A DNA stretch of 45,006 nt, from the UHGV virus genome UHGV-0250353; one strand, 5' to 3'. The stretch comes from a virus. The notes beneath the pieces were generated by a model. The model was not told the DNA's origin and ran no database searches. It saw nothing but the letters and a program-made list of their open reading frames with translations. The position numbers were made by a program, and so were the translations under genes. Below, piece by piece: positions 4,670-32,668 of the stretch. The stretch's first letter is position 1. Every line of letters starts with the position of its first letter.

Positions 4670-4698
4670 TTGCACACCCCAATATAATAGGGTACTAT
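4670..4698 (+). promoter_or_regulatory. sigma70-like promoter TTGCAC-N17-TACTAT with palindromic operator TAATAGggtaCTATTC (4685..4700)
   Basis: hexamers and spacing read directly; same architecture as minus-strand promoters at 24746..24774 and 26253..26281. Confidence 0.5.
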
Positions 4699-4728
4699 TC
4701 ACCTACACCAACAATGGAGGGATTTAAA

Positions 4729-4920
4729 ATGTCAAGTTTACCAGTTTCCTTAATTCTGTTTGCACTTCTCGCTTATTTCGCGCCTTTCCTGGTTGCGTAC
4801 TTCCGTAATCATAAAGCGAAGTTGGCAATATTCATGGCTAACCTGTTTCTTGGCTGGGTTCTGCTGCCGTGGGTATTTATTTTAATATGGGCTTGCAACT
4901 CGAACGTGAAAGAGAAGTAG
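4729..4920 (+). CDS. small two-TM membrane protein, superinfection-immunity (Imm)-like
   Basis: GGAGGG RBS then ATG 4729; two hydrophobic helices; FRNHKAKLAIFMANLFLGW...WVFILIWA resembles Imm-type small membrane proteins (from memory, not searched). Confidence 0.45.
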   Translation: MSSLPVSLILFALLAYFAPFLVAYFRNHKAKLAIFMANLFLGWVLLPWVFILIWACNSNVKEK

Positions 4921-4958
4921 GCTACTATAAGACAAATCCTAAACACGAGGAAGTAAGC

Positions 4959-6089
4959 ATGGCCCATAAGAAAATAACCGACGAACAGTTACAGGAAGAA
5001 TTGAACGCCGGAATGAAGAATGCAGACATCGCCCGTAAATACGGCATCTCAGACCGCGTAATTCGTATCCGTAAAGCGAAGCTGGCTAAGAAAGGCGTAG
5101 GCCACGGGCGTGACGTTAGTCACCTTGTCCCGGACGGCTACAAAATTAAAGGGACCTCGTCACTGGTGGACGAGTTCGGCAACACTAAACTTCAATGGGT
5201 TAAGACCGACACCGATGCCGAACGTCAGGTCGAGTTGATGAAAGCCGTAATCGAAGGCATGAAGTCGGAGATTACTCCAGTTGCACCAGTTAAAGCCGTT
5301 CGCGCCAAACGTGACGATAAACTACTCAATCTTTACACGGTATCTGATTTCCATCTCGGTATGCTGGCCTGGGCCGACGAGAGCGGCGACGACTGGGATA
5401 TGAAGATTGCGGAAGACCTGTTCTCTCGCTGGTTCGATGCTGCGTTCCAGAAAGCGCCAGATGCAGGAACAGGAGTTATTAACCTGCTTGGCGACCTTGC
5501 GCACTTCGATAGTCTGGATGCCGTTACACCTGCAAGCGGCCATGTTCTTGACGCGGACACGCGCTATCAGAAACTGGTCCGCTACATGATTCGTATGGTT
5601 CGCCGTGTTATTGATATGGCGCTGGTTAAGCATAAAAATGTTCGCTTGCTTATCGTGCAAGGGAACCACGACGAAAGTGGAATGATTTGGTTAGCTGAGA
5701 TGTTCAGTACGCTGTACGACAATGAGCCGCGTGTGTTTGTCGATACTTCACCAGATGTTTACAAGATGGTGCAACACGGCAAAACGACGCTGTTCTTTAC
5801 ACACGGGCATAAATGCCGGTTTGAGGTTGTCGAACCAATTATGATAGCTAAGTTCAGAAAAGCATTTGGAGAAAGCGAGTACAGTTACGCGCATGTAGGG
5901 CATCTCCACCATCAAAAGATTGTAGAAAGTAGGAATATGGTAGTGGAGCAACATCGCACTCTCGCGGCGAAAGATGCATATGCTTCCCGCGGCGGGTGGA
6001 TGTCTAAGAGGTCCGCTAATGTCATAACCTATAGTTCAGAGTTCGGGGAAGTAGGTAGGCTTTCAATCTCACCGGAGATGCTAAGATGA
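4959..6089 (+). CDS. HTH domain fused to calcineurin-like metallophosphoesterase
   Basis: GAGGAAG RBS then ATG 4959; motifs DFHLG, GDLAHFD, GNHDES, THGH, GHLHH in canonical order; N-terminal ADIARKYGISDRVIRIRKAK HTH-like. Confidence 0.7.
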   Translation: MAHKKITDEQLQEELNAGMKNADIARKYGISDRVIRIRKAKLAKKGVGHGRDVSHLVPDGYKIKGTSSLVDEFGNTKLQWVKTDTDAERQVELMKAVIEGMKSEITPVAPVKAVRAKRDDKLLNLYTVSDFHLGMLAWADESGDDWDMKIAEDLFSRWFDAAFQKAPDAGTGVINLLGDLAHFDSLDAVTPASGHVLDADTRYQKLVRYMIRMVRRVIDMALVKHKNVRLLIVQGNHDESGMIWLAEMFSTLYDNEPRVFVDTSPDVYKMVQHGKTTLFFTHGHKCRFEVVEPIMIAKFRKAFGESEYSYAHVGHLHHQKIVESRNMVVEQHRTLAAKDAYASRGGWMSKRSANVITYSSEFGEVGRLSISPEMLR

Positions 6090-6556
6090 AGTACCTTGAT
6101 GTTTCAAAACAATTTAAATACTGCCCTGATACGGGGCAGGTTACCAGGATATCTACTGGTGCTGAGGTTGGTACGGTTGGTGTAAGAGGATATCTGTGCT
6201 GCGGTATGGGTGGTAAAACAGTATATGTCCACCGCGTAGCATGGTGTCTTTATAATAAATGTGACTTAGACAGGAAAACACAAATAGACCACATAAACCA
6301 TAACAGGCTAGACAATAGAATAGAAAATCTACGCGCCACCGACAATACAGGGAACAGTAAAAATAAAACTATGAGAAAGATAAATAAATCCGGGGCTACA
6401 GGTGTAAGTTTCCACAAAGCCGCGGGTAAGTGGCGCGCGTTTATAAAAGTTAACTACAAACAAGTGCATTTAGGGCTTTACGACGATTTTGATGTAGCGG
6501 TTGCCGCGCGTAAAGCCGCTGAGAGTAAATACGGTTTTCATGAAAACCATGAGTAG
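6086..6556 (+). CDS. HNH homing endonuclease with AP2-like domain
   Basis: HRVAW...QIDHINHNRLDNRIENLR HNH motif; GVSFHKAAGKWRAFI AP2-like; ATGA overlap with upstream gene. Confidence 0.75.
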   Translation: MKYLDVSKQFKYCPDTGQVTRISTGAEVGTVGVRGYLCCGMGGKTVYVHRVAWCLYNKCDLDRKTQIDHINHNRLDNRIENLRATDNTGNSKNKTMRKINKSGATGVSFHKAAGKWRAFIKVNYKQVHLGLYDDFDVAVAARKAAESKYGFHENHE

Positions 6557-6567
6557 GAGAGCTATTT

Positions 6568-6798
6568 ATGACTTCAAAATATAACCGCACAATGACAAAT
6601 ACCCACGGCAGCACTATGACAGTAGACGTTTATGATGTGCTGCGGGCCTTCGACATCCGCGACCCAGCACTGCAACACGCTTTGAAGAAATTATTGTGCA
6701 TGGGCTTGCGTGGACACAAAGACACCGGGACGGACTTAGCGGAAGCAATTGAAAGTCTGGAGAAGTTACGAGAGTACCGGAGTAATATTGATGAGTGA
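6568..6798 (+). CDS. hypothetical protein
   Basis: ORF track 76 aa, RBS GGAG upstream, inside island operon. Confidence 0.5.
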   Translation: MTSKYNRTMTNTHGSTMTVDVYDVLRAFDIRDPALQHALKKLLCMGLRGHKDTGTDLAEAIESLEKLREYRSNIDE

Positions 6799-6967
6799 AA
6801 ATATTATGAAAACGATATATGTAATCCGTGTATACGACGAAGAATGGGACGAGTGGGTTGATATTTACGCTGTAGGTAGTAAGGAAGAGGCCTCTAAAGA
6901 GATGGCAGAACGGAGTGACCGAGGTCAGTTAACTAACTTCTACGAAATGCCATTCAAAAGTGAGTAA
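6791..6967 (+). CDS. hypothetical acidic small protein
   Basis: in-frame ATG 6791 overlapping stop of upstream gene; ORF track frame 6749..6967. Confidence 0.45.
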   Translation: MSENIMKTIYVIRVYDEEWDEWVDIYAVGSKEEASKEMAERSDRGQLTNFYEMPFKSE

Positions 6968-6970
6968 GAA

Positions 6971-6996
6971 AAGGCCCCGAAAGGGGCCTTAGTTTT
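6971..6996. terminator. bidirectional intrinsic terminator AAGGCCCC-GAAA-GGGGCCTT + TTTT
   Basis: 8-bp GC stem, tetraloop, T-run on plus and A-run upstream; sits between convergent genes. Confidence 0.6.
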
Positions 6997-8167
6997 ATGC
7001 GTAGGTGATACGCTGGATAACAATAGACGACTGGTACTGATTGCCGGTAGCCTGGCCTTCGATGGACTGAGTGATTGACTCTGGTCCGCCAATCTCTGGC
7101 GTAACCGCCGTAAGTTCTGCGCGTTTCAGGCTGAAAGACATAGCCCCGTTTACCCCCGCCAGAATAGAGTTAATCTCTACCTGCTGTTCGTTGATAAACT
7201 TCTGAATCATCGCCATGTCGTACAGCTTACCGGAGATAGAGAAGGTGTTAGCCGCGCGACCACGTTCCACGAACGCAACGCTACTGTTGCCGAGTTCGAA
7301 CTGCGCAGAAGCACCGTTGTCGTTTGTGATGGTCAGAGTATCGCAACGCAACGGCGTAGAACCGTCGAACACGGACACATCTACGGATGAGAACGGCTCA
7401 TCGGTAAACGTCACCTGAGAGAAATCAGAACCTGCTGGCGGTGCAGAAAGAATCTCCTGACTTAGACCGATGAACGGGAAGCTGCCTGTCACCATCGCGT
7501 TTACGGCCTGTTCAATGGTGAATCCGGAGATTTCCACGCCTTTGGTCAACATGTACGCGTCCGGGTTCCCGCACTGTCCTTTGAACCATGTCAGGATGGA
7601 GAACGTCTTACATGCGTTACTGGTTTCCAGTTTGTCGCCGGTTTTAGCGTCGGTGGTTACAGTCTCTGCTGTCAGCGTGTGCTGAATGCCCGCACCCGTA
7701 ACTACAAGAGCAGAAACCGCGGTCACGATAAACGGTTTTGCGTTGTCGCCGGTTAAGTCGGTGAACGCAATCAGGTCGCCAACTTCTACACCGTCAGTAA
7801 TGAAGCTACCGGCAGCGCGGGTGAATGTTTTACCTGCTGGGGCGACCGTAATTTCAGCACCCGTAATCTCCACCCCATCCTGCCACGTAGAAGTCATCGC
7901 GCCCGCGAGGAAATCATCCTGGCTACGCGAGCTAAGTTCGATGGCGTACTCCCCGCTAACCTGCTTATTACCAGTGCGGATGGATGTAGTTTCACGGCTG
8001 CCGTCGAGTTCGTTGGAAGTCAGCGCATCGCGGGTTACGGCTGGAACGCCGCCCGTGTTACGCAACGGCGACCAGACCGGGTTAGTCGGTGTTACGCCCG
8101 GGGTATTTTCCACCACATAGAATTGCGCGGTATTCGCGCCCTTAAAAGGAGTTGTAGCCATATTCAC
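6995..8167 (-). CDS. major tail protein (putative)
   Basis: 390 aa Thr/Ser/Gly-rich structural-type protein; last large gene before chaperones/tape measure in transcription order. Confidence 0.5.
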   Translation of the reverse strand: MNMATTPFKGANTAQFYVVENTPGVTPTNPVWSPLRNTGGVPAVTRDALTSNELDGSRETTSIRTGNKQVSGEYAIELSSRSQDDFLAGAMTSTWQDGVEITGAEITVAPAGKTFTRAAGSFITDGVEVGDLIAFTDLTGDNAKPFIVTAVSALVVTGAGIQHTLTAETVTTDAKTGDKLETSNACKTFSILTWFKGQCGNPDAYMLTKGVEISGFTIEQAVNAMVTGSFPFIGLSQEILSAPPAGSDFSQVTFTDEPFSSVDVSVFDGSTPLRCDTLTITNDNGASAQFELGNSSVAFVERGRAANTFSISGKLYDMAMIQKFINEQQVEINSILAGVNGAMSFSLKRAELTAVTPEIGGPESITQSIEGQATGNQYQSSIVIQRITYA

Positions 8168-8580
8168 AGCCTCTTGGTGAATGCAATAAAGTTAATTGAC
8201 AATGGTCGTTTGGCCCATCCGTTTTCTACAATCAGCGGCCCCAGGCTAACCGATTGAACCTCGGCGCAGATGTCGTTACGTGAAAATGACTTACCTGCCT
8301 TAAACGCCGTGTTAAGTAAGTCTGCCATTTTATTGATTGGCGCGCTACCTTTCACCGATGCGTAGTTAATGTCCACCTGATAAATACCAGAGCGTTGTTC
8401 TGTGAAGAACAAATCCGCCTGTTCTGTATCCGCAAGTAACATGTAACTCGCCAGATACGGCGTATCGGTTGATGTCGGCGCGTCGATGTTTTCAAGTGCT
8501 ACCTTGATGCCGTTGGCGGTTCCGAAGGCTACCAGCGGCACATCAAACGCTTTTGTTAAGTCCTCAAAGTAGCCCATCAT
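8164..8580 (-). CDS. tail/neck structural protein (putative tail terminator or completion protein)
   Basis: 138 aa ORF translationally coupled in structural operon. Confidence 0.5.
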   Translation of the reverse strand: MMGYFEDLTKAFDVPLVAFGTANGIKVALENIDAPTSTDTPYLASYMLLADTEQADLFFTEQRSGIYQVDINYASVKGSAPINKMADLLNTAFKAGKSFSRNDICAEVQSVSLGPLIVENGWAKRPLSINFIAFTKRL

Positions 8581-9331: not shown

Positions 9332-9425
9332 TTTAGCACCTCTTGCAGCGTCAAAAGAACACCGTAACTGTGCAAGACTGCTGCGGTAAGAAAACCAAAA
9401 ACTACACCACATGTGAACTTATTCA

Positions 9426-10040: not shown

Positions 10041-10042
10041 TT

Positions 10043-10555: not shown

Positions 10556-10558
10556 AAA

Positions 10559-10738: not shown

Positions 10739-10774
10739 GACCTTTCCTTATTACGGCCCCGAAGGGCCGTTGTA

Positions 10775-11125: not shown

Positions 11126-11137
11126 TTTTAAGCTCCT

Positions 11138-11437: not shown

Positions 11438-11444
11438 AATTTAC

Positions 11445-12546: not shown

Positions 12547-12548
12547 TA

Positions 12549-13935: not shown

Positions 13936-14071
13936 AAGCAAAAGAGTATGGCCCTTCCGAACGCGTCAGCGTAACTACACTCAGGACTTACGTCCCGCTC
14001 CGTTACCTGCCCGCGCCGCGGTCGCTCGTTCATACTTCACAAGCTCAGGTGGAGCTTATCATATTTTTAGT
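13936..14071 (-). repeat. conserved noncoding element, copy A (candidate structured RNA / leader)
   Basis: about 88 percent identical by hand alignment to 26454..26590; compensatory hairpin 13974..13985; no conserved ORF. Confidence 0.6.
14043..14071 (-). promoter_or_regulatory. candidate extended -10 promoter TTGACT-N17-TGaTAAGCT inside copy A
   Basis: hexamers read on minus strand; conserved in copy B. Confidence 0.4.
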
Positions 14072-14144
14072 GAAAAGTCAACTATTCGAATAGTTTATTC
14101 CAACATTTACAATTGATTGGAATAACTGGAATAATTACGAGCCA

Positions 14145-14165
14145 TAAAAAGCCCCTTTCGGGGCT
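14145..14165 (-). terminator. intrinsic terminator AGCCCC-UUUC-GGGGCU with U5 on minus RNA
   Basis: stem and A-run (plus) read directly, immediately after stop of 14171..14632. Confidence 0.55.
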
Positions 14166-14170
14166 TCAGT

Positions 14171-14632
14171 TTATTCTGGCTTAGTCACCTTCGCCGCTTT
14201 GCTTACACCCTCTACACCATCGGCATCGGTAACTTTAACGAAGTATTCACCGACCACATTAACCGTCAGAGACAGAGCTTCTTCTGGGGCGTTGACTACT
14301 TCCTTACCGTCTTTGTACCAGGTCAGCACATACGGCGCTTTGCCCGCCTTAACTTCGACAGTGATAGTTGCGCTGCCGTCTGCCAGTTCCGCATCCTGCG
14401 GTTGCACAGAGAAATACACGTCGCCAGCGTCCGCCAGATACGGAATCTCATAAAGCATACCCGCCGCGGGCAGCGCGATGCCTGTTTTATCCGCAAACGG
14501 CATATCGTCTACCGGTGTACCGAGTACACTTTCGTCTTCAATAAACACCACGTTCTCACCAGAGCCGGATACACGGGCGTACTGGACTACGCGGCGCGCG
14601 GGTACATCGGTTACTTTGAAAAAGCCCATCAT
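14171..14632 (-). CDS. Ig-like domain protein
   Basis: TITVEVKAGKAPYVLTWYKDGKEV...YFVKVTDADG Ig-like pattern. Confidence 0.5.
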   Translation of the reverse strand: MMGFFKVTDVPARRVVQYARVSGSGENVVFIEDESVLGTPVDDMPFADKTGIALPAAGMLYEIPYLADAGDVYFSVQPQDAELADGSATITVEVKAGKAPYVLTWYKDGKEVVNAPEEALSLTVNVVGEYFVKVTDADGVEGVSKAAKVTKPE

Positions 14633-19205: not shown

Positions 19206-19385
19206 TCATTTTAAGAATCTCAGCGCGGCGTCCGCGATACCGGACACCACTAGCCCGAAAAACATAGGCCACCAGATATATCTTGGCAGATTGGTAAATG
19301 TTTCGGGCTTAGTCCAGAAAGCCATTAAAAACGCGAGCCAAAACACCATATAACTAATGTTGCTAAGTAATTCTAAAATATTCAT
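19206..19385 (-). CDS. small membrane protein (59 aa, two hydrophobic segments)
   Basis: ATGA overlap with upstream gene; hand translation MNILELLSNISYMVFWLAFLMAFW...; below ORF-track cut-off. Confidence 0.4.
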   Translation of the reverse strand: MNILELLSNISYMVFWLAFLMAFWTKPETFTNLPRYIWWPMFFGLVVSGIADAALRFLK

Positions 19386-19618
19386 TCCCCGCTCTCCCCT
19401 TTAGCAATGCGTTGCTCAGTTTTAGTGATACCCCGGCGCGTGAATAACACCGGGCTGGTCTTAACGTGCGTCATCAGACGGTTGTTATAAATTACGTGGC
19501 GCTCGCAATCAACGTCTTTGCTGTACTTCGCAATCGTCATTTCGTTTATGCCAGTTTGCCGGCATGTCTCGGCCATCGTGCCGAATTCTTTAATCAGGTT
19601 CGGAATGCTGGTAATCAA
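19382..19618 (-). CDS. small HTH-like DNA-binding protein (putative)
   Basis: FGTMAETCRQTGINEMTIAKY HTH-like segment. Confidence 0.4.
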   Translation of the reverse strand: MITSIPNLIKEFGTMAETCRQTGINEMTIAKYSKDVDCERHVIYNNRLMTHVKTSPVLFTRRGITKTEQRIAKGESGE

Positions 19619-21133: not shown

Positions 21134-21162
21134 CGATGAAGTAAATATAATAGGGTCTACGG
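21134..21162 (-). promoter_or_regulatory. sigma70-like promoter TTGACT-N17-TATATT
   Basis: hexamers read on minus strand, just downstream of tandem terminators. Confidence 0.45.
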
Positions 21163-21184
21163 TAATAGTCAACTAGTCATTACA

Positions 21185-21215
21185 GAAAATAGATAAAAAA
21201 AATCCCGGCTGGGTC
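21185..21215 (-). terminator. intrinsic terminator TCCCGGC...GCCGGGA with U8 on minus RNA
   Basis: 7-bp stem plus A8 run on plus strand. Confidence 0.6.
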
Positions 21216-21289
21216 AGGGCCGGGATAAAACTGGAGAGTAGAGGGATGAAGCAGGAGGTGATTTAAGTATCGTCGGATTAGTCTTAGGT

Positions 21290-21319
21290 GTCAATTGGTA
21301 AAATAAAACCCGGATTCGC
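21290..21319 (-). terminator. intrinsic terminator AACCCGGA...TCCGGGTT
   Basis: 8-bp stem, A/T-rich flank; tandem with 21185..21215 after endolysin. Confidence 0.5.
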
Positions 21320-23819: not shown

Positions 23820-24023
23820 TTATTTCTCCTGTTTACCAAGTCGCTTAGGTGAGCAAATAGCGCGTACCTCTGAATCGTTGGGCTTGTCACCCTGGAACAG
23901 GAAGTGCGCGTTCTCTGCGGCGCGTGCCGCTGACTGGCACGCCTCCATCGAGTAAAACGTTTCCGATGTCGCCAGGTGCATCTGGCCTGCGGACAGTACC
24001 CATATAAATAAGATGCTGGTCAT
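23820..24023 (-). CDS. small protein with N-terminal hydrophobic/signal-like segment
   Basis: ORF track 67 aa; MTSILFIWVLSAGQMHLA. Confidence 0.45.
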   Translation of the reverse strand: MTSILFIWVLSAGQMHLATSETFYSMEACQSAARAAENAHFLFQGDKPNDSEVRAICSPKRLGKQEK

Positions 24024-24589
24024 TTCAGTTTAGCCCCGCAATCAAGACACTTTTTAGTAAAACCCGGCGCAAAGCCTTTGCGCAAACCGACGGTATTAGC
24101 GTGTTGGCAATCGCTCGATTCCGATTCTTGCTTACCGCATTTAGCGCAAATGAAGTAGTCCCCTTTTTCATCTAGCACCCAATCATGCTCGCATTCCTGA
24201 GTATCTTCCTTACGGCAATCAGATTGCTCAGGTTCATGCGGAAACTTATTAGCTAGAACGGATACCTGCCTACCGAGTAAATTAAGCGCTTTCTGCAGCT
24301 CTGTCTCCCGCGCCGACGCATCGCGTAACTGATTCTTAAGTGACTGCAACTCATGCGCCAGGTCTTCGCACTGGTTGTTATTTACCTGCTGACGTAAACT
24401 GTCTTTCAGCGCTCGTATTTCGTCGTCCTTACCGGCGATATGCTGCTGTAGGTTGTGAATTACCTGCTTGACCTCATCAAGGTCGGATATCCGCACAGAC
24501 ACATCGAAAGATGTGACATCTTTCTTATTTACCTGCTGCCGTAGCTGGTCAATCAGGTACTCGAATACTACATCATTTGCGTTCTGCAT
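24020..24589 (-). CDS. coiled-coil protein with C-terminal zinc-ribbon module
   Basis: 189 aa; CRKEDTQECEHDWV...CAKCG and CLDCG motifs. Confidence 0.55.
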   Translation of the reverse strand: MQNANDVVFEYLIDQLRQQVNKKDVTSFDVSVRISDLDEVKQVIHNLQQHIAGKDDEIRALKDSLRQQVNNNQCEDLAHELQSLKNQLRDASARETELQKALNLLGRQVSVLANKFPHEPEQSDCRKEDTQECEHDWVLDEKGDYFICAKCGKQESESSDCQHANTVGLRKGFAPGFTKKCLDCGAKLK

Positions 24590-24745
24590 TTTTAGCCTCT
24601 CTGTTCATAAGTTCCAGTAATAACCTAGCTGTTTGGCGCTCACGGGTGTTTCTCGGTGACGAGGCGTAGAACTCTAGCACCTCGCGTGATGGTTCTTGTG
24701 CGGTTTTACTGTTCACTCTGTCTCTCCACTCGTTGGTGTAAATGA

Positions 24746-24774
24746 ATAGTAGCCTATTCTATCTCAGTGTGCAA
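24746..24774 (-). promoter_or_regulatory. sigma70-like promoter TTGCAC-N17-TACTAT with operator GAATAGtagcCTATTC (24744..24759)
   Basis: read on minus strand; identical architecture to 26253..26281 and 4670..4698. Confidence 0.45.
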
Positions 24775-24781
24775 GTAAATT

Positions 24782-24955
24782 TTATTGGCGTGTTATAGAA
24801 TCTATGAACGACAGTAACGCGCGCTCCGCTTCTGCTTCTCTTTCTTCAAGCGACCAGGTAGCGGATTCCTCTGTTGCCGTTGCTATATCTGTTTTCACAT
24901 CAATCATCGTGTTGATTAACGCGATTAGTCGTTCGGCCTGTTCTTTAGTAATCAT
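24782..24955 (-). CDS. small hypothetical protein (57 aa)
   Basis: ATG 24955 with GGAG RBS; hand translation MITKEQAERLIALINTMIDV...; antisense to ORF-track ORF 24804..25016. Confidence 0.4.
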   Translation of the reverse strand: MITKEQAERLIALINTMIDVKTDIATATEESATWSLEEREAEAERALLSFIDSITRQ

Positions 24956-25080
24956 TGTTGCATCTCCTGCAATAGTCGCTTCTATTGTTGCGTTTGGTGA
25001 AATAGAACAAAAATGAGAAAAATGATACGCTGCTGTGTAGCAGCGTAAGTCACAAAGCCAAATAGTAACCTATTGACCTG

Positions 25081-25290
25081 TTACACCAGCGATGGTGGCT
25101 CGGGTAACGGCATCCGGTGAGTTACATTAGCTTCATCGTAATAGGATGAGTCATACGAATGAATCTCCCAACTAACATAATCTCCATATCGGAGATAGTA
25201 CCCCTCGTGGACTTGTCTTAAGTCGTCGTAAACAAGTACGTCCTCGCCTTCTTCCGGCATCCGCTCACTACACTTAATCCACTCACCCAT
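25081..25290 (-). CDS. hypothetical acidic protein
   Basis: ORF track 69 aa. Confidence 0.45.
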   Translation of the reverse strand: MGEWIKCSERMPEEGEDVLVYDDLRQVHEGYYLRYGDYVSWEIHSYDSSYYDEANVTHRMPLPEPPSLV

Positions 25291-25293
25291 ATC

Positions 25294-25437
25294 TCACCTC
25301 GGATTTGCAACAGACAACACACCAGCTTTCCACGCCCGCCACGCGAGACGAGTCTTAACGTTCAGGTACTCTTTCTTCGAACCCTTATTAACCGGCAGAC
25401 CCTCGACGACGGCCCACCGTTCGAATGCTTCTCTCAT
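25294..25437 (-). CDS. small hypothetical protein (47 aa)
   Basis: ATG 25437 two codons after upstream stop; hand translation MREAFERWAVVEGLPVNKGSKKEY... Confidence 0.35.
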   Translation of the reverse strand: MREAFERWAVVEGLPVNKGSKKEYLNVKTRLAWRAWKAGVLSVANPR

Positions 25438-25440
25438 AAC

Positions 25441-25686
25441 TTAGTCCTCATCATCTTCTAAGTCGGGGTACACTATGAAATCGCCAAGCCTTTGCAACTC
25501 TGCACCTGCCATAAAATAACCAAGTGCTTCGGCTCTTTCGGAATCTGTTTTAAACTCAGACAGAGGATATCTTTCGTAGAACTTGTTAATTAATAGCGCA
25601 TGGTCAAACTTAGTTGCATCATAATTTTTCATAACTAATAACTCCGATAACTTTAGATTTCTCGCGCCGGGTGCAACCATGCTCAA
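25441..25686 (-). CDS. hypothetical protein
   Basis: ORF track 81 aa. Confidence 0.5.
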   Translation of the reverse strand: MSMVAPGARNLKLSELLVMKNYDATKFDHALLINKFYERYPLSEFKTDSERAEALGYFMAGAELQRLGDFIVYPDLEDDED

Positions 25687-25870
25687 TGTAGTAGCGCGCC
25701 TGCTTGACGCTTTCGCAACGCGTCAACGTAACCCACCAGAACAACCCGACCCTCACCTGCACGGCGGGTGTAATTCGTTTCTCACCGAAGGCGGTAACCC
25801 ACTCTTCGCTAACTATGCGGTATTTACTTAACACGGCAACCTCCCTCAGAGTCGTCGGCACGAGCATCAT
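25619..25870 (-). CDS. hypothetical protein (true start uncertain)
   Basis: ORF track 83 aa; overlaps both neighbours substantially. Confidence 0.35.
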   Translation of the reverse strand: MMLVPTTLREVAVLSKYRIVSEEWVTAFGEKRITPAVQVRVGLFWWVTLTRCESVKQARYYIEHGCTRREKSKVIGVISYEKL

Positions 25871-26033
25871 GATTCGATGCCGTTCGGATAGAACGCAAAC
25901 TATGTAGCATTCTCCCGGCGGAAGCTGTGATAATCGTTACCCCATCTAAAATAACAACCTCGTACCTGTTTACCCGGAAATGCACTTTCTCCAGTTTATG
26001 ATGTTTCAGCTCTTCAAATAATTCTTCCATCAC
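25824..26033 (-). CDS. hypothetical protein (true start uncertain)
   Basis: ORF track 69 aa. Confidence 0.35.
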   Translation of the reverse strand: MMEELFEELKHHKLEKVHFRVNRYEVVILDGVTIITASAGRMLHSLRSIRTASNHDARADDSEGGCRVK

Positions 26034-26227
26034 TTCACCCCTTTGAATTTAAAATTGTTGCCGATGAGTTCTAAATACTCCGCGCTTACAGTTGCATGGC
26101 CGCCAGTAAATACATTGCGAAGTTTACAAATGGCAGCACTGCCTCTGTTGTTGGTGGAAAATACGGAGTACAAACATCCCGACTTTTTACTACGGACCAA
26201 CTGACCCTTCTTAAACATAACCCTCAC
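26030..26227 (-). CDS. hypothetical protein, first gene of leftward early operon
   Basis: ATG 26227 with GAGGGG RBS about 19 nt downstream of promoter 26253..26281. Confidence 0.5.
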   Translation of the reverse strand: MRVMFKKGQLVRSKKSGCLYSVFSTNNRGSAAICKLRNVFTGGHATVSAEYLELIGNNFKFKGVK

Positions 26228-26252
26228 CCCTCTGTCTCGTTTCGATAAGTGA

Positions 26253-26281
26253 ATAGTATCCTATTATGTTTGGGTGTGCAA
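26253..26281 (-). promoter_or_regulatory. sigma70-like promoter TTGCAC-N17-TACTAT with operator GAATAGtatcCTATTA (26251..26266)
   Basis: hexamers, spacing and palindrome read directly. Confidence 0.5.
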
Positions 26282-26323
26282 GAGAATAGTTACGTTGCCG
26301 TTGTGATTCTTTCGTTTCTTAAA

Positions 26324-26379
26324 AGAGTACGCAACGCAGGGGGTGGGCATTAGCCCACCCCAGCGGAGTGAAGTACTCT
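26324..26379. other. nested inverted repeat AGAGTAC...GGGTGGGC-atta-GCCCACCC...GTACTCT (structured element in control region)
   Basis: outer 7-bp and inner 8-bp complementary arms read directly; no adjacent U-run. Confidence 0.4.
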
Positions 26380-26453
26380 CTACCTTGCTCACGGCAACTA
26401 TAGAAACTTTTAATTATCAGTGACTTGGGTATTTAGGCGGGATTAACAATAGA

Positions 26454-26590
26454 CTATGGCCCTTCCGAATGCGGGCAGCGACACTACACTCAGTGCTAAC
26501 GCACCGCTCCGTTCTCCTGCCGCACCGCGGTCGCTTGTTCATACTTCACAAGCTCAGGTGGAGCTTAGCATATTTTTAGTGAAAAGTCAA
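26454..26590 (-). repeat. conserved noncoding element, copy B
   Basis: paralogue of 13936..14071; compensatory hairpin 26493..26504. Confidence 0.6.
26562..26590 (-). promoter_or_regulatory. candidate extended -10 promoter TTGACT-N17-TGcTAAGCT inside copy B
   Basis: same motif and position as in copy A. Confidence 0.4.
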
Positions 26591-26685
26591 TATCAGTAGC
26601 ATCTTTTGTATCTTAGTAACTTTGTTGTTGCTTTTTGCTTGAAGTACCATTATCTTAGGTACTTCAACAACTGAGGGGTATTTAG

Positions 26686-26829
26686 ATGAAGATTTGCCAG
26701 ATGTGTAGGAAAGAAAAAGAAGAAGGTGCATTCCTTAAACGTTATGACAGAAAAGGAACGCGTAGTTATTGCCGTGAATGTTTCAATGCATACCGCAAAC
26801 AATTAAGAGAGGCTAAGAAGAATGCATAA
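26686..26829 (+). CDS. small zinc-ribbon protein (47 aa, CxxC...CxxC)
   Basis: GAGGGG RBS then ATG 26686; hand translation MKICQMCRKEKEE...YCRECFNAY; first gene of rightward arm. Confidence 0.45.
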   Translation: MKICQMCRKEKEEGAFLKRYDRKGTRSYCRECFNAYRKQLREAKKNA

Positions 26830-27271
26830 ATACTTAGATGAGTTTCTGAAATCGTTAAACCTGATATTAGCCGAGAACCCGGGAGCGTCACTGCATGACA
26901 TTAAATCGGCAATAGAACTCGACGGGCCAATTAGTGCCGTGATTTCATTGCTTGGGTATTTCGGGGAGATAGACCGTGTTTATGATGGTAGTAAATATCT
27001 GTATTGGGTTAAAGGCGGTAAGCCATCCAATGTTATATCAGTTCCTTTTCCCGAGAAGGGCCAACTTACGGAGTTACAAAAACTAGTCTATGGAAAATGT
27101 CTTGAACAGCAAGGCCGACGCATCACCCCTAGTGCGGTATACGCCCTGGTAAAAGATGACGTCACCAATCTTGGTGCTGTCTGTACCGCTATGCGCGGAC
27201 TTTCTAAAAAAGGTTTGTTGATTAAGGTGTGTGATGGCGTGTATGCTCTTGCAGTACCAAACGCCAAATAA
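26822..27271 (+). CDS. hypothetical protein
   Basis: ORF track 149 aa. Confidence 0.55.
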   Translation: MHKYLDEFLKSLNLILAENPGASLHDIKSAIELDGPISAVISLLGYFGEIDRVYDGSKYLYWVKGGKPSNVISVPFPEKGQLTELQKLVYGKCLEQQGRRITPSAVYALVKDDVTNLGAVCTAMRGLSKKGLLIKVCDGVYALAVPNAK

Positions 27272-27329
27272 AAGAAAGCCCCGACGCGGTGAACGCCGAG
27301 GCCAAATTACTTGCTGAAGGAAATACAAC

Positions 27330-29597
27330 ATGTCCGATGTAATTTTATCCTACTCGTGGTCCCGTCGCAACGCGCGGGCAGAGAAAAAGGATATAAACGT
27401 CAGAACTACACACACGGCAACACTGGACGACCTGAAAGAGTTAATCCAGCCGCTCGATGCTGTTCGTGACGGAATTAACCCTAAGACAGCACCTGGCTAT
27501 ATTACTGCCGCGTGCGACTCAACGCACAGCACCGTAAAAGACCCGGAAACCGGTGACTTTAAGCAAGCGCGTAAGGGTTTTTTCTATCGTTGCGACGCAT
27601 CTGTAAGCAAATCGTCACTGGCGTATCTGGACTTCGACAGCGCAACACCGGAAGAGTATCAGGAAGCGGTGCGCCTGGTTAAGCGCAGCCGCCAGGCTAT
27701 GTGCCTCTACACCACGGCATCGCATACCGATGAGTCTCCTCGCTTTCGCGTCGTCATGCCGCTGGGACGCCCGGTCGAAGGTGGCGACATCATCCGCGTT
27801 CGTCATGGATTGCTCGGGCACTTCTTCAAAGGCATGGGTGCTGACCGCAGCGGGTTCACTCTGTCACAGCCGATGTACCTGCCGCCGGTTGGCGCTACCG
27901 TTATCTGGTCACGCCGCAATGACCTGATTGACCCGGACGAGTTACTGGAGGGTATCCCCGCCGTTGACGTCAGCAGCGCATCGGATTACCAGATTCCGGA
28001 AGAACTGCGCACCGCGTTTACTGATGCGTTCGAGGTACTGGCGTTTGAGTACGGCGGCATCATGACGCCACGCGGCCTTAAGATGCCAGCTACACCGGAA
28101 CACGCAGAAAACTACAGCGATCCAACACCGCGCCTGGACGACTTCCTATTGTGCTTTCCGCGCGAAGGGTACGAAGCGCCTAACGTAACCATGATTCACG
28201 ACACCGACATTACCGCAACCGAAGGCATGTCGCCGAAGGAGGTGTGGAAGTATGCGTGTGATGCGACCGGGTTGCCGTTCAGTGAAGTCGCTGAGGCAAT
28301 CGGCTGGGGTGCGCGTGAATCAGTTTCATGCAGCCTGGACGACCTGGAAGACGATGAGGACTCAGAGGAGGACGAGTTACCAGAACCGGTAAAGGCTGAT
28401 TTCGTCGTTGAAGGGTACATGCCGTCAGATTGTATCTGGGATATTGTCGGGGAATCTGGCACGTACAAATCATTCTATACGCTGGGTATGATGTATCTCA
28501 GCGCCGCTGGTTACCGGTTTGCGGGGGCGGATACCCAGCGTTGTCACCATTTCTATATCGATGGTGAGGGTGGTGCAGCCACACGTACACGTATCGATGC
28601 CCTCGCGGCTAAATATGGCGAGGAAGGTAAAGATTACGTACATGTCATCGATATGGGCGAAGTCGGCAAACTGAAAAGCCTGATTAAGTTAATGCGCGAA
28701 ACCGCTGGCGATGAGCCAATAGGCATGGTTGCATTCGACACCCTTAACCAGACGCTGGCCCTGACAATCGATAAGTTCGACGAGAACAGTTCATCGACGG
28801 CAATCGGCATGGGTAAAGTTATCGCCATCCTGAAAGAAGTACGCGACGCAACTAAAGCCGCAGTAGGCGTTGTTCACCATACGCCGAAAGGCGGGAAGAA
28901 AGCACGTGGTAGCGGGGCACTGTATGCGGGTGTTGACGTGGAACTGACAATTGAGCGTGCAACCGACCGTCAGATAAACGTATATCACTCGAAATTTAAG
29001 CACGGGCCTCAACAGAAGACTGTTGGCATGGTTCTGGAGTCCGTACAGTTCCGTGAAGCCCCGCCGCCGAAACAGTACCGCGCGGTTGAGTTCCTGGGTA
29101 GCACAGAGGAATACGGCACAATCGTTAACCTCGACCTGCCGGAGCCGCACAAGGCGCTTGTGTTGATGCCGTGGGGCTTTGAACCGTTCAAGACCGACGA
29201 GGAGAAAGAGCGGGAAGAAGGGCTGACAAAGGAAGGTAAAGAAAACGTACGTAAAACCGTAGAGAACGCCGTCAACAGCTCAGAAGCCACAATACTGGCA
29301 GCGTTTGAACTGGCGGAAGGAACCTACAACGGAAACGAAGGTATCACAGTAGCCGCAGCGAATAAGCTGGCACAGTCCGACCCCAACGCAAAGGCGTTTA
29401 ACTCCAAAGAAGCCATAGAACGCGGGAAGATTAAGAAAATGGTTGAGGCCGGGTATCTTGTACCGGGGACTGACGAAAACAATCAGATAATACCGGGCCG
29501 TTACAGACTTAACACCAGGATAACAGATAACAAGATTCCGAAGACAATATACGAACCGAATGAAATGCTGACAGTGACCGAGGAGGATTTGGAATAG
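27330..29597 (+). CDS. primase/helicase-like replication protein (N-terminal primase-like region + RecA-like ATPase)
   Basis: Walker A GESGTYKS, Walker B-like region and VVHHTPKGG motif typical of RepA/DnaB-type ATPases; GAAGGA RBS. Confidence 0.65.
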   Translation: MSDVILSYSWSRRNARAEKKDINVRTTHTATLDDLKELIQPLDAVRDGINPKTAPGYITAACDSTHSTVKDPETGDFKQARKGFFYRCDASVSKSSLAYLDFDSATPEEYQEAVRLVKRSRQAMCLYTTASHTDESPRFRVVMPLGRPVEGGDIIRVRHGLLGHFFKGMGADRSGFTLSQPMYLPPVGATVIWSRRNDLIDPDELLEGIPAVDVSSASDYQIPEELRTAFTDAFEVLAFEYGGIMTPRGLKMPATPEHAENYSDPTPRLDDFLLCFPREGYEAPNVTMIHDTDITATEGMSPKEVWKYACDATGLPFSEVAEAIGWGARESVSCSLDDLEDDEDSEEDELPEPVKADFVVEGYMPSDCIWDIVGESGTYKSFYTLGMMYLSAAGYRFAGADTQRCHHFYIDGEGGAATRTRIDALAAKYGEEGKDYVHVIDMGEVGKLKSLIKLMRETAGDEPIGMVAFDTLNQTLALTIDKFDENSSSTAIGMGKVIAILKEVRDATKAAVGVVHHTPKGGKKARGSGALYAGVDVELTIERATDRQINVYHSKFKHGPQQKTVGMVLESVQFREAPPPKQYRAVEFLGSTEEYGTIVNLDLPEPHKALVLMPWGFEPFKTDEEKEREEGLTKEGKENVRKTVENAVNSSEATILAAFELAEGTYNGNEGITVAAANKLAQSDPNAKAFNSKEAIERGKIKKMVEAGYLVPGTDENNQIIPGRYRLNTRITDNKIPKTIYEPNEMLTVTEEDLE

Positions 29598-29606
29598 GTA
29601 AAAAGA

Positions 29607-29625
29607 AAGGGGCGTTAAGCCCCTT
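29607..29625 (-). terminator. hairpin AAGGGGC-guuaa-GCCCCUU at 3' end of HTH gene
   Basis: 7-bp stem read directly; U-rich tract on minus RNA; between convergent genes. Confidence 0.45.
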
Positions 29626-29830
29626 CACCCAACGCCAGCCACTTGGCGTCTACTTGCAGCACTTCCGCCAGTTTAAACAGCGTTGCCGGGCGGACGTCCT
29701 GAGTTACCCCGAGTGCAAGCTGGTTAATCGCGCCCTGGGAAACGCCCGCAAGGACCGCCAGACGGCGCTGGGAGATACCGAGTTCTTTACGGCGTTGCTC
29801 TACACGGATGCCTAGTTCAGATGGTTGCAT
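29615..29830 (-). CDS. XRE-family HTH transcriptional regulator (Cro/CI-like, 71 aa)
   Basis: LGISQRRLAVLAGVSQGAINQLALG HTH; AAGGAG RBS; divergent from operator-bearing promoters. Confidence 0.7.
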   Translation of the reverse strand: MQPSELGIRVEQRRKELGISQRRLAVLAGVSQGAINQLALGVTQDVRPATLFKLAEVLQVDAKWLALGEGA

Positions 29831-29894
29831 GTCAATTACTCCTTAGTCAGTTGATATGTGAATAGTACCATATTAATTATTTTAGAAAAGCCCA

Positions 29895-29923
29895 TTGACA
29901 CGTGAATAGTTCGCTATTATAGT
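29895..29923 (+). promoter_or_regulatory. sigma70-like promoter TTGACA-N17-TATAGT with operator GAATAGttcgCTATTA (29904..29919); degenerate tandem copy at 29851..29879
   Basis: consensus -35, 17-nt spacer, good -10 read directly. Confidence 0.55.
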
Positions 29924-29955
29924 TAGCCTATACCAAACGAGAGGAGAGAAACAAA

Positions 29956-30105
29956 ATGATTAACAACCGCAAAGCAAAGGTTCTGTTGGGCCTTGATATC
30001 GCATTTGGAACTAAAGAAACCGCACGCTATCGCGTAAGCAACAATCGTGTTGGCTTCTTCGACAAAGCTACAGGCCAGTTAGTTAAAACCGTTAAATATA
30101 AATAA
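29956..30105 (+). CDS. small hypothetical protein (49 aa)
   Basis: GGAGAGAAACAAA-ATG initiation region nearly identical to that of next gene; hand translation. Confidence 0.4.
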   Translation: MINNRKAKVLLGLDIAFGTKETARYRVSNNRVGFFDKATGQLVKTVKYK

Positions 30106-30120
30106 ACAGGAGAGAAACAA

Positions 30121-30621
30121 ATGTTAGACCAATTCTTAAAATTACTGGAACGTTTCGTAGTTGCACATGAACTGATTGCTGCGAACAGCGCGAAAGAACC
30201 TGTGATTGGCTCCCCGGAACATTTTGCTGAGTTTTGTAAGTTGCAGGGTGTAAGTGTAAAAGAGGCTTTAACTAAACCTTCAAAAGAAATCCCGGTCGAA
30301 GGTGAAGACATCGTCGACACTAAACCGGCAGAAGAAGAGAAGCCAAAACGTAAGACGCGTAAAGCTAAAGTAGAGGAACCAACGCCAGAACCGGAAGAAG
30401 AGAAAGAAGAAGTCGATTACCAGTCTCTTCGTGACCAGATTCAGGCTATCGATGATGCAATTAACGAAGGTCCGAGTGATGCTGCGTGTGACGATTCTGA
30501 TGAACTGCTGGAAGAGTTCACCGGTAAGAAGATGAAGATTGCCGCGATTAAAGACGAAGACCTGGCCGAGTACCTGGAACGCCTCACGGCAATCAAGAAC
30601 AAGTATTTCGAAGAAGAATAA
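30121..30621 (+). CDS. hypothetical acidic protein
   Basis: ORF track 166 aa; Glu/Asp-rich C-terminal half. Confidence 0.55.
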   Translation: MLDQFLKLLERFVVAHELIAANSAKEPVIGSPEHFAEFCKLQGVSVKEALTKPSKEIPVEGEDIVDTKPAEEEKPKRKTRKAKVEEPTPEPEEEKEEVDYQSLRDQIQAIDDAINEGPSDAACDDSDELLEEFTGKKMKIAAIKDEDLAEYLERLTAIKNKYFEEE

Positions 30622-30676
30622 CTACTTAACTTATGGTGCCATCATACGTGAGGGCACCAAACTGAGGGTCGGAATT

Positions 30677-31165
30677 ATGGATTGGCATGAGATATTCGAC
30701 TATGACCGCGCCACAGGAAAATTGTATTGGAAAATACAGCCATCTCATGCGGTTAAGCCGGGTGAAGAGGCTGGAAGTGTGGGAACTGAGGGTTATGTAG
30801 ATGTTGGTTTTGCAGGCCGTTTATATAAGGCGCATCGCATTATATGGGATATGATGAACACTGACGATAAACTAACGCCGAACCACCAAATAGACCACAT
30901 AAACCATATCAGAACGGATAATAGGATAGAAAATTTAAGGAAGGTACACCACTGTGACAACGCCAAAAATCAAAGCATGCGCGTAGACAATACCTCAGGT
31001 GTCGCGGGAGTATACTTCGACCGAACTAATAGAAAATGGAGGGCCCGCATTAGGGCGAGTGGCACGACCATTTGTTTGGGGAGATACGATAGTTTAGAAG
31101 AAGCCGCATGCGCACGCCAGAAAGCAGAAGAGATTTACGGGTTTCACAAAAATCATGGGGGGTAA
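30677..31165 (+). CDS. HNH homing endonuclease with AP2-like domain
   Basis: QIDHINHIRTDNRIENLR HNH motif, paralogue of 6086..6556; ATG 30677 with GAGGG RBS preferred over ORF-track start. Confidence 0.75.
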   Translation: MDWHEIFDYDRATGKLYWKIQPSHAVKPGEEAGSVGTEGYVDVGFAGRLYKAHRIIWDMMNTDDKLTPNHQIDHINHIRTDNRIENLRKVHHCDNAKNQSMRVDNTSGVAGVYFDRTNRKWRARIRASGTTICLGRYDSLEEAACARQKAEEIYGFHKNHGG

Positions 31166-31168
31166 AAG

Positions 31169-32410
31169 ATGATTTTAAAAGAACGCGGCGGCAATAACGA
31201 CGTACATGCCTTACTGTCGCCGTCAGGGGCTAAAAAGTGGCTAAGTTGCGCTGCATCACTGGCATGTGAAAAAGATATTCCCAACACGTCTGGTAAAGCT
31301 GCCGTTACAGGGACCGCGTGTCACACCATAGCGGAGATGCACCTTAACCAGTACATCAAAGGCCCTGCGTTGCCGTTAGAGCGTGAAGTTGGTGCTTATG
31401 TTCTGGACGAGGGTAAGGGCCAGATTAAGGCGCTAATCAGCCCGATGAAAGGCGCGGTACTGATTACGGCGGACATGATTGAGCAGGTGCGCAAGTACAC
31501 CGACTACTGCAAAGCGATTATCGACGTTGCCACTTACGCCAAGCTGGAGATGCGCGTCAATCTTACTGAGGTATTGCATCCGGGATATGAAGGCGTTGAG
31601 ACGTTCGGAACCGCCGACCTTGTTGCCGTGCAGGAACTGGCAAACACTGACGAGCACATGTTAATTATCGGCGACCTGAAAACAGGACGGCATCGTGTCG
31701 AAGCGAAAGAAAACAAGCAGCTTATGCTTTACGCTCTAGGCGTTTATCGCCGACTCAAGAGACGCTATAACATCACAGTTGTGCGCCTGGTCATCTTCCA
31801 GCCGTACGCTGGCGGGGCGTCGGAGTGGGACATCTTGGTTGAAGGTCTGGAACTGTTCGCTAAGTTTGCACAGAAACGTGCGCTGTTAGCCCTTGATGCG
31901 TATTTCCGTGGCAAGAAGAATCTGAAAGCGTCGGACTTCAGGCCGTCGGTCGATGGTTGTCAGTGGTGCCGGTTCTCTGAACAATGCGCCGCTCGTACAA
32001 AGACGGTTAATTCTGTACTGGCGGAAGAACTGGAAGACGACTTTGCGCTGGAACTTACGCCGGAGCAACTCGTCGCCGAGTATGAGAAGTTGCCGCTGTT
32101 GCGCCAGCACATCGACAAGGTTGAGAAAGCGATGGTCGCCGCATTGCATTCTGGTAAGAAAGTTCCTGGGTACAAGCTGGTTGAAGGTAAGATGGGCAAT
32201 CGTGCGTGGAAAGACGCGGAGAAAGTAACAGAACTCTACGGCGACAAGCTGACTAAAGAAGTGCTCATGACGCCAACCGAAGCTGTTAAAGTGCTACCGG
32301 AAGAAGAACTGAAAGACTTCATCACACGTAAGCCCGGTGCCCCATGCGTCACAACGGCAGACGACAAACGTCCTGAGTGGAATCAGGTAACAGAGGAGGA
32401 TTTAGAATGA
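31169..32410 (+). CDS. PD-(D/E)XK nuclease, Cas4/RecB-like with Cys cluster
   Basis: SPSGAKKWLSC N-terminus, GTADLVAV...IIGDLKTG nuclease motifs, C-terminal CQWCRFSEQC. Confidence 0.65.
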   Translation: MILKERGGNNDVHALLSPSGAKKWLSCAASLACEKDIPNTSGKAAVTGTACHTIAEMHLNQYIKGPALPLEREVGAYVLDEGKGQIKALISPMKGAVLITADMIEQVRKYTDYCKAIIDVATYAKLEMRVNLTEVLHPGYEGVETFGTADLVAVQELANTDEHMLIIGDLKTGRHRVEAKENKQLMLYALGVYRRLKRRYNITVVRLVIFQPYAGGASEWDILVEGLELFAKFAQKRALLALDAYFRGKKNLKASDFRPSVDGCQWCRFSEQCAARTKTVNSVLAEELEDDFALELTPEQLVAEYEKLPLLRQHIDKVEKAMVAALHSGKKVPGYKLVEGKMGNRAWKDAEKVTELYGDKLTKEVLMTPTEAVKVLPEEELKDFITRKPGAPCVTTADDKRPEWNQVTEEDLE

Positions 32411-32643
32411 TTCGTAAAATGTTCGGAGTAATTGGCGGTTTTGTAGCGTTTTTAACCTATCACGCTCTAATACTGCCGCTGGTTATAATGCTTCTTCCGT
32501 TTTTCGTGTATACCGCCTTTAAGTGCAGGAAAATAGAACTAGAGGATTTGGTGTACGCCAAAGAAGTTGAGTGGGTGCGTAATTTGAAGTGGCCCAACGT
32601 ATACCTAACTATAGTTGAGAAAATAACTGGCTGGAAGGGTTGA
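32407..32643 (+). CDS. small membrane protein
   Basis: ATG 32407 overlapping upstream stop; hydrophobic helices. Confidence 0.45.
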   Translation: MIRKMFGVIGGFVAFLTYHALILPLVIMLLPFFVYTAFKCRKIELEDLVYAKEVEWVRNLKWPNVYLTIVEKITGWKG

Positions 32644-32668
32644 CACCTGAATAGCAAGCTATTATAGT
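32640..32668 (+). promoter_or_regulatory. sigma70-like promoter TTGACA-N17-TATAGT with operator GAATAGcaagCTATTA (32649..32664)
   Basis: read directly; -35 overlaps stop codon of upstream gene. Confidence 0.55.

Follow-up and report, generated by a model that had tools for sequence, protein, structure and literature searches.

The virus genome UHGV-0250353 (45,006 nucleotides (nt); this whole stretch was analysed and is called the window below) carries a short palindrome that recurs within promoters on both strands and, adjoining two of its copies, a gene for a 71-amino-acid (aa) Cro-like helix-turn-helix (HTH) protein, and we propose that the palindromes are probably the operators of this protein. 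Region 24000..33000 of the window aligns with the Escherichia coli Kagunavirus phages K1G, fFiEco03 and ST20 at ~90% identity over 60–70% of the query, and the layout of its open reading frames (ORFs) parallels that of K1G and Sciku. Nucleotide similarity and synteny with K1G-like phages place it in Kagunavirus (Guernseyvirinae), and on this evidence the window is the complete or nearly complete genome of a virulent K1G-like siphophage. About 11% of the window is non-coding under a crude gene model; the gene blocks and the individual features are given in Table 1. Neither the annotations of three relatives nor the 40 window ORFs that were scanned include an integrase, a CI repressor or an RNA polymerase. 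Since no phage RNA polymerase was seen in these two sets, the genes are presumably read by the sigma70 RNA polymerase of the host.

The original prediction described the palindrome as GAATAG-N4-CTATTC, with five copies and a sixth, degenerate one. All six sites were found where it had placed them and the palindrome does recur, but the literal pattern has a single exact match, at 24744. The outer bases deviate at other sites (5' T at 4685; 3' A at 26251, 29904 and 32649), and the working consensus is instead KAATAG-N4-CTATTM ([G/T]AATAG-N4-CTATT[A/C]). This consensus has six exact copies in the window (4685, 24744, 26251, 29904, 32649 and 36425) and none in 100 dinucleotide-preserving shuffles, a frequency above chance. 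The copy at 36425, which lies in a further promoter, had been missed, as had an orphan copy of the 14-bp core AATAG-N4-CTATT at 25061. With the orphan as its seventh member, the core reaches seven copies against an analytic expectation of 0.035–0.04, and it ranks first in an unbiased census of perfect 5-N(0–10)-5 palindromes in the window, the next-ranked being terminator stems. Six of the seven cores are wholly non-coding and the remaining one overlaps the last codons of ORF 36148..36447. Core copies with one mismatch occur at 29861, 21164, 14073 and 15701, the last of which is probably a chance occurrence.

The six main copies lie in promoters of two types with 17-nt spacers, whose anatomy is as originally described: TTGCAC-N17-TACTAT with the palindrome over the -10 element (type 1) and TTGACA-N17-TATAGT, with TTGACG in the newly added case, with the palindrome within the spacer (type 2). 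Relative to the -10 element these two registers are 6 bp apart. The core of type 1 spans approximately -19 to -6, so that the -10 element falls within the right half of the palindrome, while that of type 2 spans approximately -25 to -12 and reaches from the spacer into the first base of the -10 element. The three type-2 promoters (29895, 32640 and 36416) are the best sigma70 matches between 20 and 40 kb, agreeing at 11, 11 and 10 of 12 positions, respectively. In both registers the core ends upstream of the transcription start, which makes it an element of the DNA and keeps it out of the transcript. A role in RNA was dropped for this reason, and scans of the window with Rfam (gathering threshold) and for tRNAs gave no match.

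These promoters head units in several parts of the genome. The promoter at 29895, whose palindrome we call O1, serves the rightward replication arm from 29956, that at 32640 precedes a unit from 32723 with genes for a single-stranded DNA (ssDNA)-binding protein and DNA polymerase, and that at 36416 precedes a unit from 36478 with a methyltransferase-like ORF and an SNF2 helicase. Two type-1 promoters point leftward, from 26281 into the small-gene operon 26227..25081 and from 24774 into the ORFs beginning at 24716 and 24589 and onward in the direction of the lysis genes. The third, at 4670, serves an accessory island with a superinfection-immunity gene (4714..4920), a metallophosphoesterase gene (4869..6089) and an HNH endonuclease gene.

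Table 1 Predicted genes, promoters and candidate operators of the window, with coordinates on the window.
Feature	Position	Strand	Details
Type-1 promoter	4670..4700	+	TTGCAC 4670..4675, TACTAT 4693..4698; candidate operator TAATAGGGTACTATTC 4685..4700
Type-1 promoter	24744..24774	-	TTGCAC 24774..24769, TACTAT 24751..24746; sole perfect 16-mer GAATAGTAGCCTATTC 24744..24759
Type-1 promoter	26251..26281	-	TTGCAC 26281..26276, TACTAT 26258..26253; candidate operator 26251..26266
Type-2 promoter	29895..29923	+	TTGACA-N17-TATAGT, 11/12 sigma70 match; candidate operator O1 GAATAGTTCGCTATTA 29904..29919
Type-2 promoter	32640..32668	+	TTGACA-N17-TATAGT; candidate operator GAATAGCAAGCTATTA 32649..32664
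Type-2 promoter	36416..36444	+	TTGACG-N17-TATAGT; candidate operator TAATAGCGAACTATTA 36425..36440
Degenerate candidate operator O2	29860..29875	-	minus strand TAATATGGTACTATTC; 44 bp centre-to-centre from O1
Cro-like HTH regulator gene, 71 aa, monocistronic	29615..29830	-	ribosome-binding site AAGGAG 29844..29839
Intrinsic terminator closing the regulator gene	29606..29636	-	terminator scan and sequence; convergent with helicase-primase gene 27330..29597 (+)
Orphan core	25060..25075 (core 25061..25074)	-	minus strand AATAGGTTACTATT; TACTAT, no -35; between DUF551 gene and terminator 25047..25026
Type-3 promoter	21144..21178	-	TTGACT-N17-TATATT (21172..21144); one-mismatch ACTAG-TTGA-CTATT (21164..21177) over -35
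One-mismatch copy	14072..14087	-	minus strand GAATAGTTGACTTTTC over TTGACT; at start of 150-nt repeated non-coding element; role uncertain
Structural and lysis genes		-	
Rightward replication arm	29956 to ~39100	+	
Helicase-primase operon	26686..29597	+	helicase-primase gene itself 27330..29597
Leftward small genes	26227..24020	-	
Accessory island	4714..6967	+	within tail-gene block

The weaker copies lie in other settings. The degenerate copy O2 overlies the TACTAT -10 element (29867..29862) of a promoter of the HTH gene itself, whose -35 element, CTTTTC, is poor; with the alternative promoter TTCACG-N16-TAAAAT (29906..29879, minus strand), O2 would be at about +4. The G-to-T mismatch of O2 is identical in 30 of 30 distinct Kagunavirus versions, and the orphan copy at 25061 is found in some relatives. 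Just past the terminator that follows the orphan, a variant with a spacing of six and not four, AATAG-N6-CTATT, lies at 24966–24988 on the minus strand and precedes the DUF7438 gene (24955..24782), where the homologous Jerseyvirus region has a one-mismatch N4 site instead.

A third register, with the palindrome over the -35 element, is seen at the type-3 promoter, whose position between the endolysin gene upstream and the small genes including the NinH-like ORF, the terminase and the structural block downstream makes it a probable late promoter. Its arrangement is kept in Kagunavirus and also in Jerseyvirus, where the imperfect half is on the opposite side. Directly upstream of it, a good promoter, TTGACA-N17-GATACT (21294..21266, minus strand), is followed after ~40 nt by an intrinsic terminator (~21225..21190); the predicted transcript of ~75 nt would start near CACCUCCUG, which is anti-Shine-Dalgarno-like, and the region 21185–21294 (minus strand) may encode a small RNA or an attenuator. 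The one-mismatch copy at 14073 coincides with a non-coding direct repeat of ~150 nt, whose two copies, 87–89% identical, occupy the intergenic regions 13939–14081 and 26447–26590. Each begins with TTGACT-N17-TAAGCT on the minus strand and has no Rfam match, the internal hairpin differs between them by two compensatory pair changes (CGGGAC/GUCCUG versus CGGUGC/GCACUG), and the repeat might act as a DNA structure or be transcribed into a small RNA or a repeated leader.

The HTH gene is divergent from the O1 promoter and has the second, weaker site, O2, at its own promoter. Its product is a member of Pfam HTH_3 (48.1 bits against a cutoff of 23, E-value of 1.2e-12), and its best sequence match in the Protein Data Bank (PDB) is phage 434 Cro, which is also 71 aa long (E-value of 1.8e-6, residues 6–68), with P22 C2 also among the PDB matches (E-value of 2e-3). 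A single-sequence AlphaFold2 model (pLDDT 85) has five helices, and its top PDB match by Foldseek is 2cro (TM 0.70/0.76). All aligned sequences have glutamine at position 1 of the recognition helix (Q32 in this protein, Q28 in 434 Cro). The operators of phage 434 are 14-bp dyads in which the recognition helix contacts the outer 4–5 bp and the glutamine at helix position 1 reads the outermost A.

The likeness to the 434 system thus covers both partners. Like 434 Cro, the protein is a 71-aa single-domain five-helix HTH protein whose gene adjoins the sites, and the sites overlap core promoter elements; like the 434 operators OR1–OR3 (ACAA-N6-TTGT), the sites measure 14 bp, follow a 5-4-5 layout and have A as their outermost conserved base. 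They have the make-up of 434-type operators, that is, a 14-bp dyad with a presumably non-contacted centre that overlaps promoter elements. The two systems differ in the half-site (AATAG here, ACAAG/T in 434) and in setting: the window phage is virulent and has no partner CI, tripartite OR, integrase or lysogeny, and single operators lie over at least six promoters across 32 kb instead of being clustered in an immunity region. Of the other parts of a lambdoid CI-Cro switch, neither a CI with a cleavable C-terminal domain nor an integrase is found among the scanned ORFs or in the relatives' annotations, and the dispersed single operators contrast with a tripartite OR.

Among the 40 scanned ORFs, no other specific DNA-binding domain was found except for a sub-threshold NinH match and the AP2 domains of homing endonucleases, and the scanned ORFs include no second HTH protein or S24 peptidase. 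Two further candidates were set aside. The HTH_17 (MerR/excisionase-like) protein of relatives is ruled out as the binder since it is not encoded here although the sites are present, and the ArgR box of E. coli (TGAAT-N4-ATTCA) is ruled out since the spacing here would be N8. The HTH_17 protein has 60 aa and stands with a small ORF upstream of the helicase-primase gene in fFiEco03, K1G and Sciku; the same place in the window (26686–27271) holds a 47-aa zinc-ribbon-like ORF and a 149-aa ORF without a Pfam match, which by eye looks like tandem winged-helix domains. Labels for the Cro-like gene in GenBank records and other published annotations vary and include 'repressor', 'Cro', 'DicA' and 'hypothetical'.

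Comparison with relatives shows that Kagunavirus and Jerseyvirus both keep the palindrome. AATAG-N4-CTATT is also the top palindrome in K1G (six copies) and in Jerseyvirus Kenya-K60 (five copies, as TAATAG-N4-CTATTA), and the HTH orthologue of Kenya-K60 is only ~50% identical to that of the window. In IMG/VR, where 37 homologues of the window protein are 93–100% identical, the palindrome is present in 38 of 38 Kagunavirus-type loci, including one with a 77%-identical HTH protein, and in 11 of 11 Jerseyvirus-type loci, at two to six copies per locus of 5–20 kb. It is absent from 33 other loci recovered via the same HTH family. Orthologous promoters share the site and differ in N4, both before the ssDNA-binding-protein gene (the 32640 promoter, whose Jerseyvirus orthologue retains the half-sites with a different N4) and before the homologue of the 36478 gene (the 36416 promoter, which is orthologous in K1G, Sciku and Jerseyvirus). 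In a pool of distinct Kagunavirus sequences (84 for type 2 and 60 for type 1), the -35 element, both half-sites and the -10 element carry much information, and N4 and the rest of the spacer carry little. A variable N4 between conserved half-sites is the mark that selection on a pair of symmetric contact surfaces leaves.

The type-1 arrangement also recurs with other cargo. In phage Sciku (L003:3357-3936), the cassette TTGCAG-N17-TACTAT with AATAGGGTACTATT lies upstream of a gene for a DNA polymerase III sliding clamp, an insertion of opposite orientation that separates the portal gene from the head-morphogenesis gene, and tables made with PHIRE for phages fBC-Eco01 (PMC9825357) and Golestan (PMC7203180) hold similar extra copies in the structural region. 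Because the same type-1 cassette serves different accessory genes in relatives, it appears to travel with accessory genes.

More diverged HTH proteins are accompanied by altered half-sites, a covariation that bears indirectly on sequence-specific binding by the protein dimer. At the locus of a more distant relative (L056), the HTH protein is 43% identical with the helix TQGGIGH, and its gene lies directly upstream of a 768-aa ORF in a TO17-like layout. The position of O1 is taken there by TAATAC-GTCG-GTATTA, and a one-mismatch copy overlies the promoter of the HTH gene. A further TTGACA promoter has AATAC-GGTT-GTATT within its spacer and a fourth promoter has the hybrid AATAC-N4-CTATT, so that the sites number four against 0.3 expected. 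The TO17-type Salmonella phages, whose HTH protein is 39% identical with the helix TQSAISH, have no AATAG palindromes, and their corresponding promoters carry TAWTAY-N4-CTAATA (seven against 0.5 expected, a pattern derived post hoc from the same data); this motif was found by reading the promoters by eye and was not revealed by exact k-mer recurrence. As a positive control, loci with a near-434 Cro (KQQSIQ) returned ACAAA-N4-TTTGT adjoining the gene. Since Jerseyviruses and TO17-type phages both infect Salmonella and their sites differ, the site follows the phage protein and not the host.

Taken together, the palindrome is very probably a protein operator embedded in sigma70 promoters, and we estimate a probability of about 0.68 that the palindromes are the operators of the phage's own Cro-like repressor. 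The earlier suggestion of a dimeric HTH repressor gains computational support from the 434-like 5-4-5 (14 bp) layout with a divergent 434-Cro homologue adjoining, from the several registers relative to the -35 and -10 elements, from half-sites that are conserved as N4 drifts and from their alteration with the diverged HTH protein. In the proposed circuit, the host sigma70 polymerase would fire all operator-bearing promoters after injection, and the 71-aa protein would bind as a dimer that places a recognition helix on each AATAG half-site, in the way that 434 Cro occupies its 14-bp operators. At the type-1 and type-2 positions such a dimer would exclude RNA polymerase by steric block, and rising levels of the protein would switch off or damp all units together, namely the rightward units from 29956, 32723 and 36478, the leftward units from 26227 and 24716 and the island from 4714. 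O2, a weaker half-consensus site over the gene's own promoter, could give negative autoregulation at higher concentration, and the one-mismatch type-3 site over the -35 element of the probable late promoter might be repressed less, or later. The type-1 cassette would wire newly acquired genes into the same circuit. The idea that the accessory island and both arms form one regulon gains support in a wider form, in which the 36416 unit is added, the promoter of the regulator gene is a probable further member and the late promoter a possible one.

Several points weigh against this reading. Binding by the 71-aa protein, the repressive effect and its timing are what we infer, with repression read from the position of the sites alone. 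The right half of O2 overlaps the TACTAT -10 element, and the promoter itself may account for O2 without any real site there. A near-total shut-off that includes the 24774 promoter, which reads toward the lysis genes, leaves the driver of late expression unexplained. The recognition helices of Kagunavirus (QGAINQLAL) and Jerseyvirus (QSLITHLAT) differ at four of nine positions and the half-sites are identical, so the correspondence between helix and site is not simple, and covariation was seen in only a few cases, which are confounded by phylogeny and were in part defined post hoc. In the one Kagunavirus RNA-seq study, a time course of K1B4, the immunity gene, methyltransferases and DNA polymerase share one class, which fits co-regulation, but the class is 'late' and not early; sampling at 5–120 min against a latent period of 30 min, and without a per-gene table, makes these classes unreliable. 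The label 'early genes' in the original prediction is likewise an assumption that these data are too coarse to decide.

The palindrome could also be a real operator with another binder, either an unrecognised early protein of the phage or a host transcription factor, which we consider unlikely. Many small early ORFs without a detectable family, or a weak NinH-like ORF at 19382..19618, could supply such a protein, and the identity of the sites in Kagunavirus and Jerseyvirus despite their different recognition helices is in its favour. However, the HTH gene adjoins two sites and is placed as in classic divergent autoregulation, the operators share their geometry with those of 434 Cro, the closest structural relative of this protein, and the HTH_17 protein of relatives is absent from the window. 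A host factor is also difficult to reconcile with TO17-type Salmonella phages that lack the site and Salmonella Jerseyviruses that have it. To our knowledge, no E. coli regulator has an AATAG-N4-CTATT site.

A phage-specific promoter element, read by RNA polymerase itself, by a phage RNA polymerase or by a host polymerase that a phage factor redirects, and without any repressor site, is what published PHIRE analyses take these sequences for. The genome papers of Golestan (PMC7203180) and fBC-Eco01 (PMC9825357) each list seven PHIRE 'promoters' that are the same 20-mers, e.g., TAATAGGGTACTATTCATTA and TGAATAGTATCCTATTATGT, as conserved or phage RNA polymerase promoters, and include the O2-type copy at the regulator gene and 15701-type copies; the latter paper assigns the sites to a 'phage-encoded RNA polymerase'. 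In addition, the repeat always accompanies promoters, and the right half in type 1 contains the -10 element TACTAT. We nevertheless regard this explanation as very unlikely. No RNA-polymerase-like ORF is found among the scanned window ORFs and none is annotated in relatives, and the promoters have canonical -35 and -10 elements around N17. The palindrome has dyad symmetry and occupies two or three registers relative to -35 and -10 elements that are canonical and separated by the optimal 17 nt, and is therefore more than a portion of the sequence that RNA polymerase recognises; the orphan copy has no -35 element; and among relatives with hosts of the same genus the half-sites change along with the HTH variant. 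As the words palindrome, operator and repressor are absent from both papers, neither links the sites to the HTH protein.

The HTH protein might also bind and act mainly as an activator or a dual regulator, e.g., with O1 activating the gene's own promoter in the manner of lambda CI at PRM, an explanation to which we give little credence. With TTCACG-N16-TAAAAT as the gene's own promoter, O1 would be centred at about -40, as for a class-II activator, and O2 would be at about +4; delayed activation would agree with the 'late' class to which RNA-seq assigns operator-linked genes, but the K1B4 data are too coarse to lean on. The six main sites instead overlap the -10 element or spacer of near-consensus promoters with 17-nt spacing, which is the geometry of steric repression, and activation of the MerR type needs over-long spacers. 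A chance or non-functional repeat left by duplicated promoter cassettes would fit the similar flanks and leaders between copies (e.g., AACGAGAGGAG), which show that duplication contributed to the pattern. It is, however, effectively refuted, because two genera and >140 distinct sequences have kept both half-sites selectively while N4 varies, and ~0.04 copies would be expected by chance.

As operators of a Cro-like repressor, the sites can be compared with two further known systems. Controller proteins of restriction-modification systems (C.AhdI, C.Esp1396I and C.BclI) are small XRE-family HTH dimers that are among the fold matches, and their C-boxes are likewise palindromes that overlap promoters, time expression after DNA entry and allow autoregulation via sites of graded affinity. 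These proteins control only their own operon and the restriction enzyme gene, whereas many operons are involved here; the window has no restriction enzyme among its scanned ORFs, and only one of the operator promoters is followed by a methyltransferase-like ORF. DicA, a label given to the orthologue in GenBank, and P22 C2 belong to the HTH_3 superfamily as well, but they are more distant than 434 Cro, the P22 operators have 18 bp, and their roles are in prophage immunity and cell-division control. The sites are not new as sequences, and the circuit is of a standard phage kind, conceptually an ordinary repressor-operator system.

Many Kagunaviruses and Jerseyviruses have been isolated with phage therapy and food biocontrol in view, and the two groups also serve phage engineering as small chassis. 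Their transcription programme is essentially uncharacterised, and a probable single Cro-like gate on at least six promoters gives a map of regulation that can be tested. The operator reading also corrects an annotation error that is spreading through genome papers, and the AATAG, AATAC and TAWTAG variants offer compact orthogonal promoter-operator/repressor parts for engineering. A broader and speculative extension, which we doubt would hold in full, is that the strictly virulent Guernseyvirinae run almost all host-polymerase promoters via a single Cro-only circuit left from a temperate-type switch. Three registers and graded site quality would then set the hierarchy of shut-off, O1 might also activate the promoter of the regulator gene from about -40, the type-1 cassette would be portable (superinfection immunity here, the sliding clamp in Sciku) and the repressor could silence superinfecting genomes. 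If true, such silencing of genomes of the same kind would amount to transcriptional immunity without lysogeny.

Some other features of the genome were observed. Three ORFs resemble HNH and/or AP2 homing endonucleases (822–1472, 6086–6556 and 30539–31165), two of which share a 51-nt stretch with 84% identity (6281/30887). The helicase-primase (29574–29597) and an exonuclease (32387–32410) end in an identical acidic tail, ...VTEEDLE, and the ssDNA-binding protein has DDLEDDDEDE near its C-terminus (33284–33349); these recall T7-type systems, in which acidic C-terminal tails mediate replisome contacts. A GC-rich terminator hairpin, AAAAGGCCCC-N4-GGGGCCTT, occurs in four near-identical copies (6967–6997, 14144–14174, 33365–33390 and 39089–39119). 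The hairpins at 6971–6990 and 39093–39112 are located at junctions of oppositely oriented gene blocks, and the one at 6971 scores as a terminator on both strands. Finally, a 33-nt tandem duplication with 91% identity (38857–38922) falls within the small ORF 38763..38951 or at its end.

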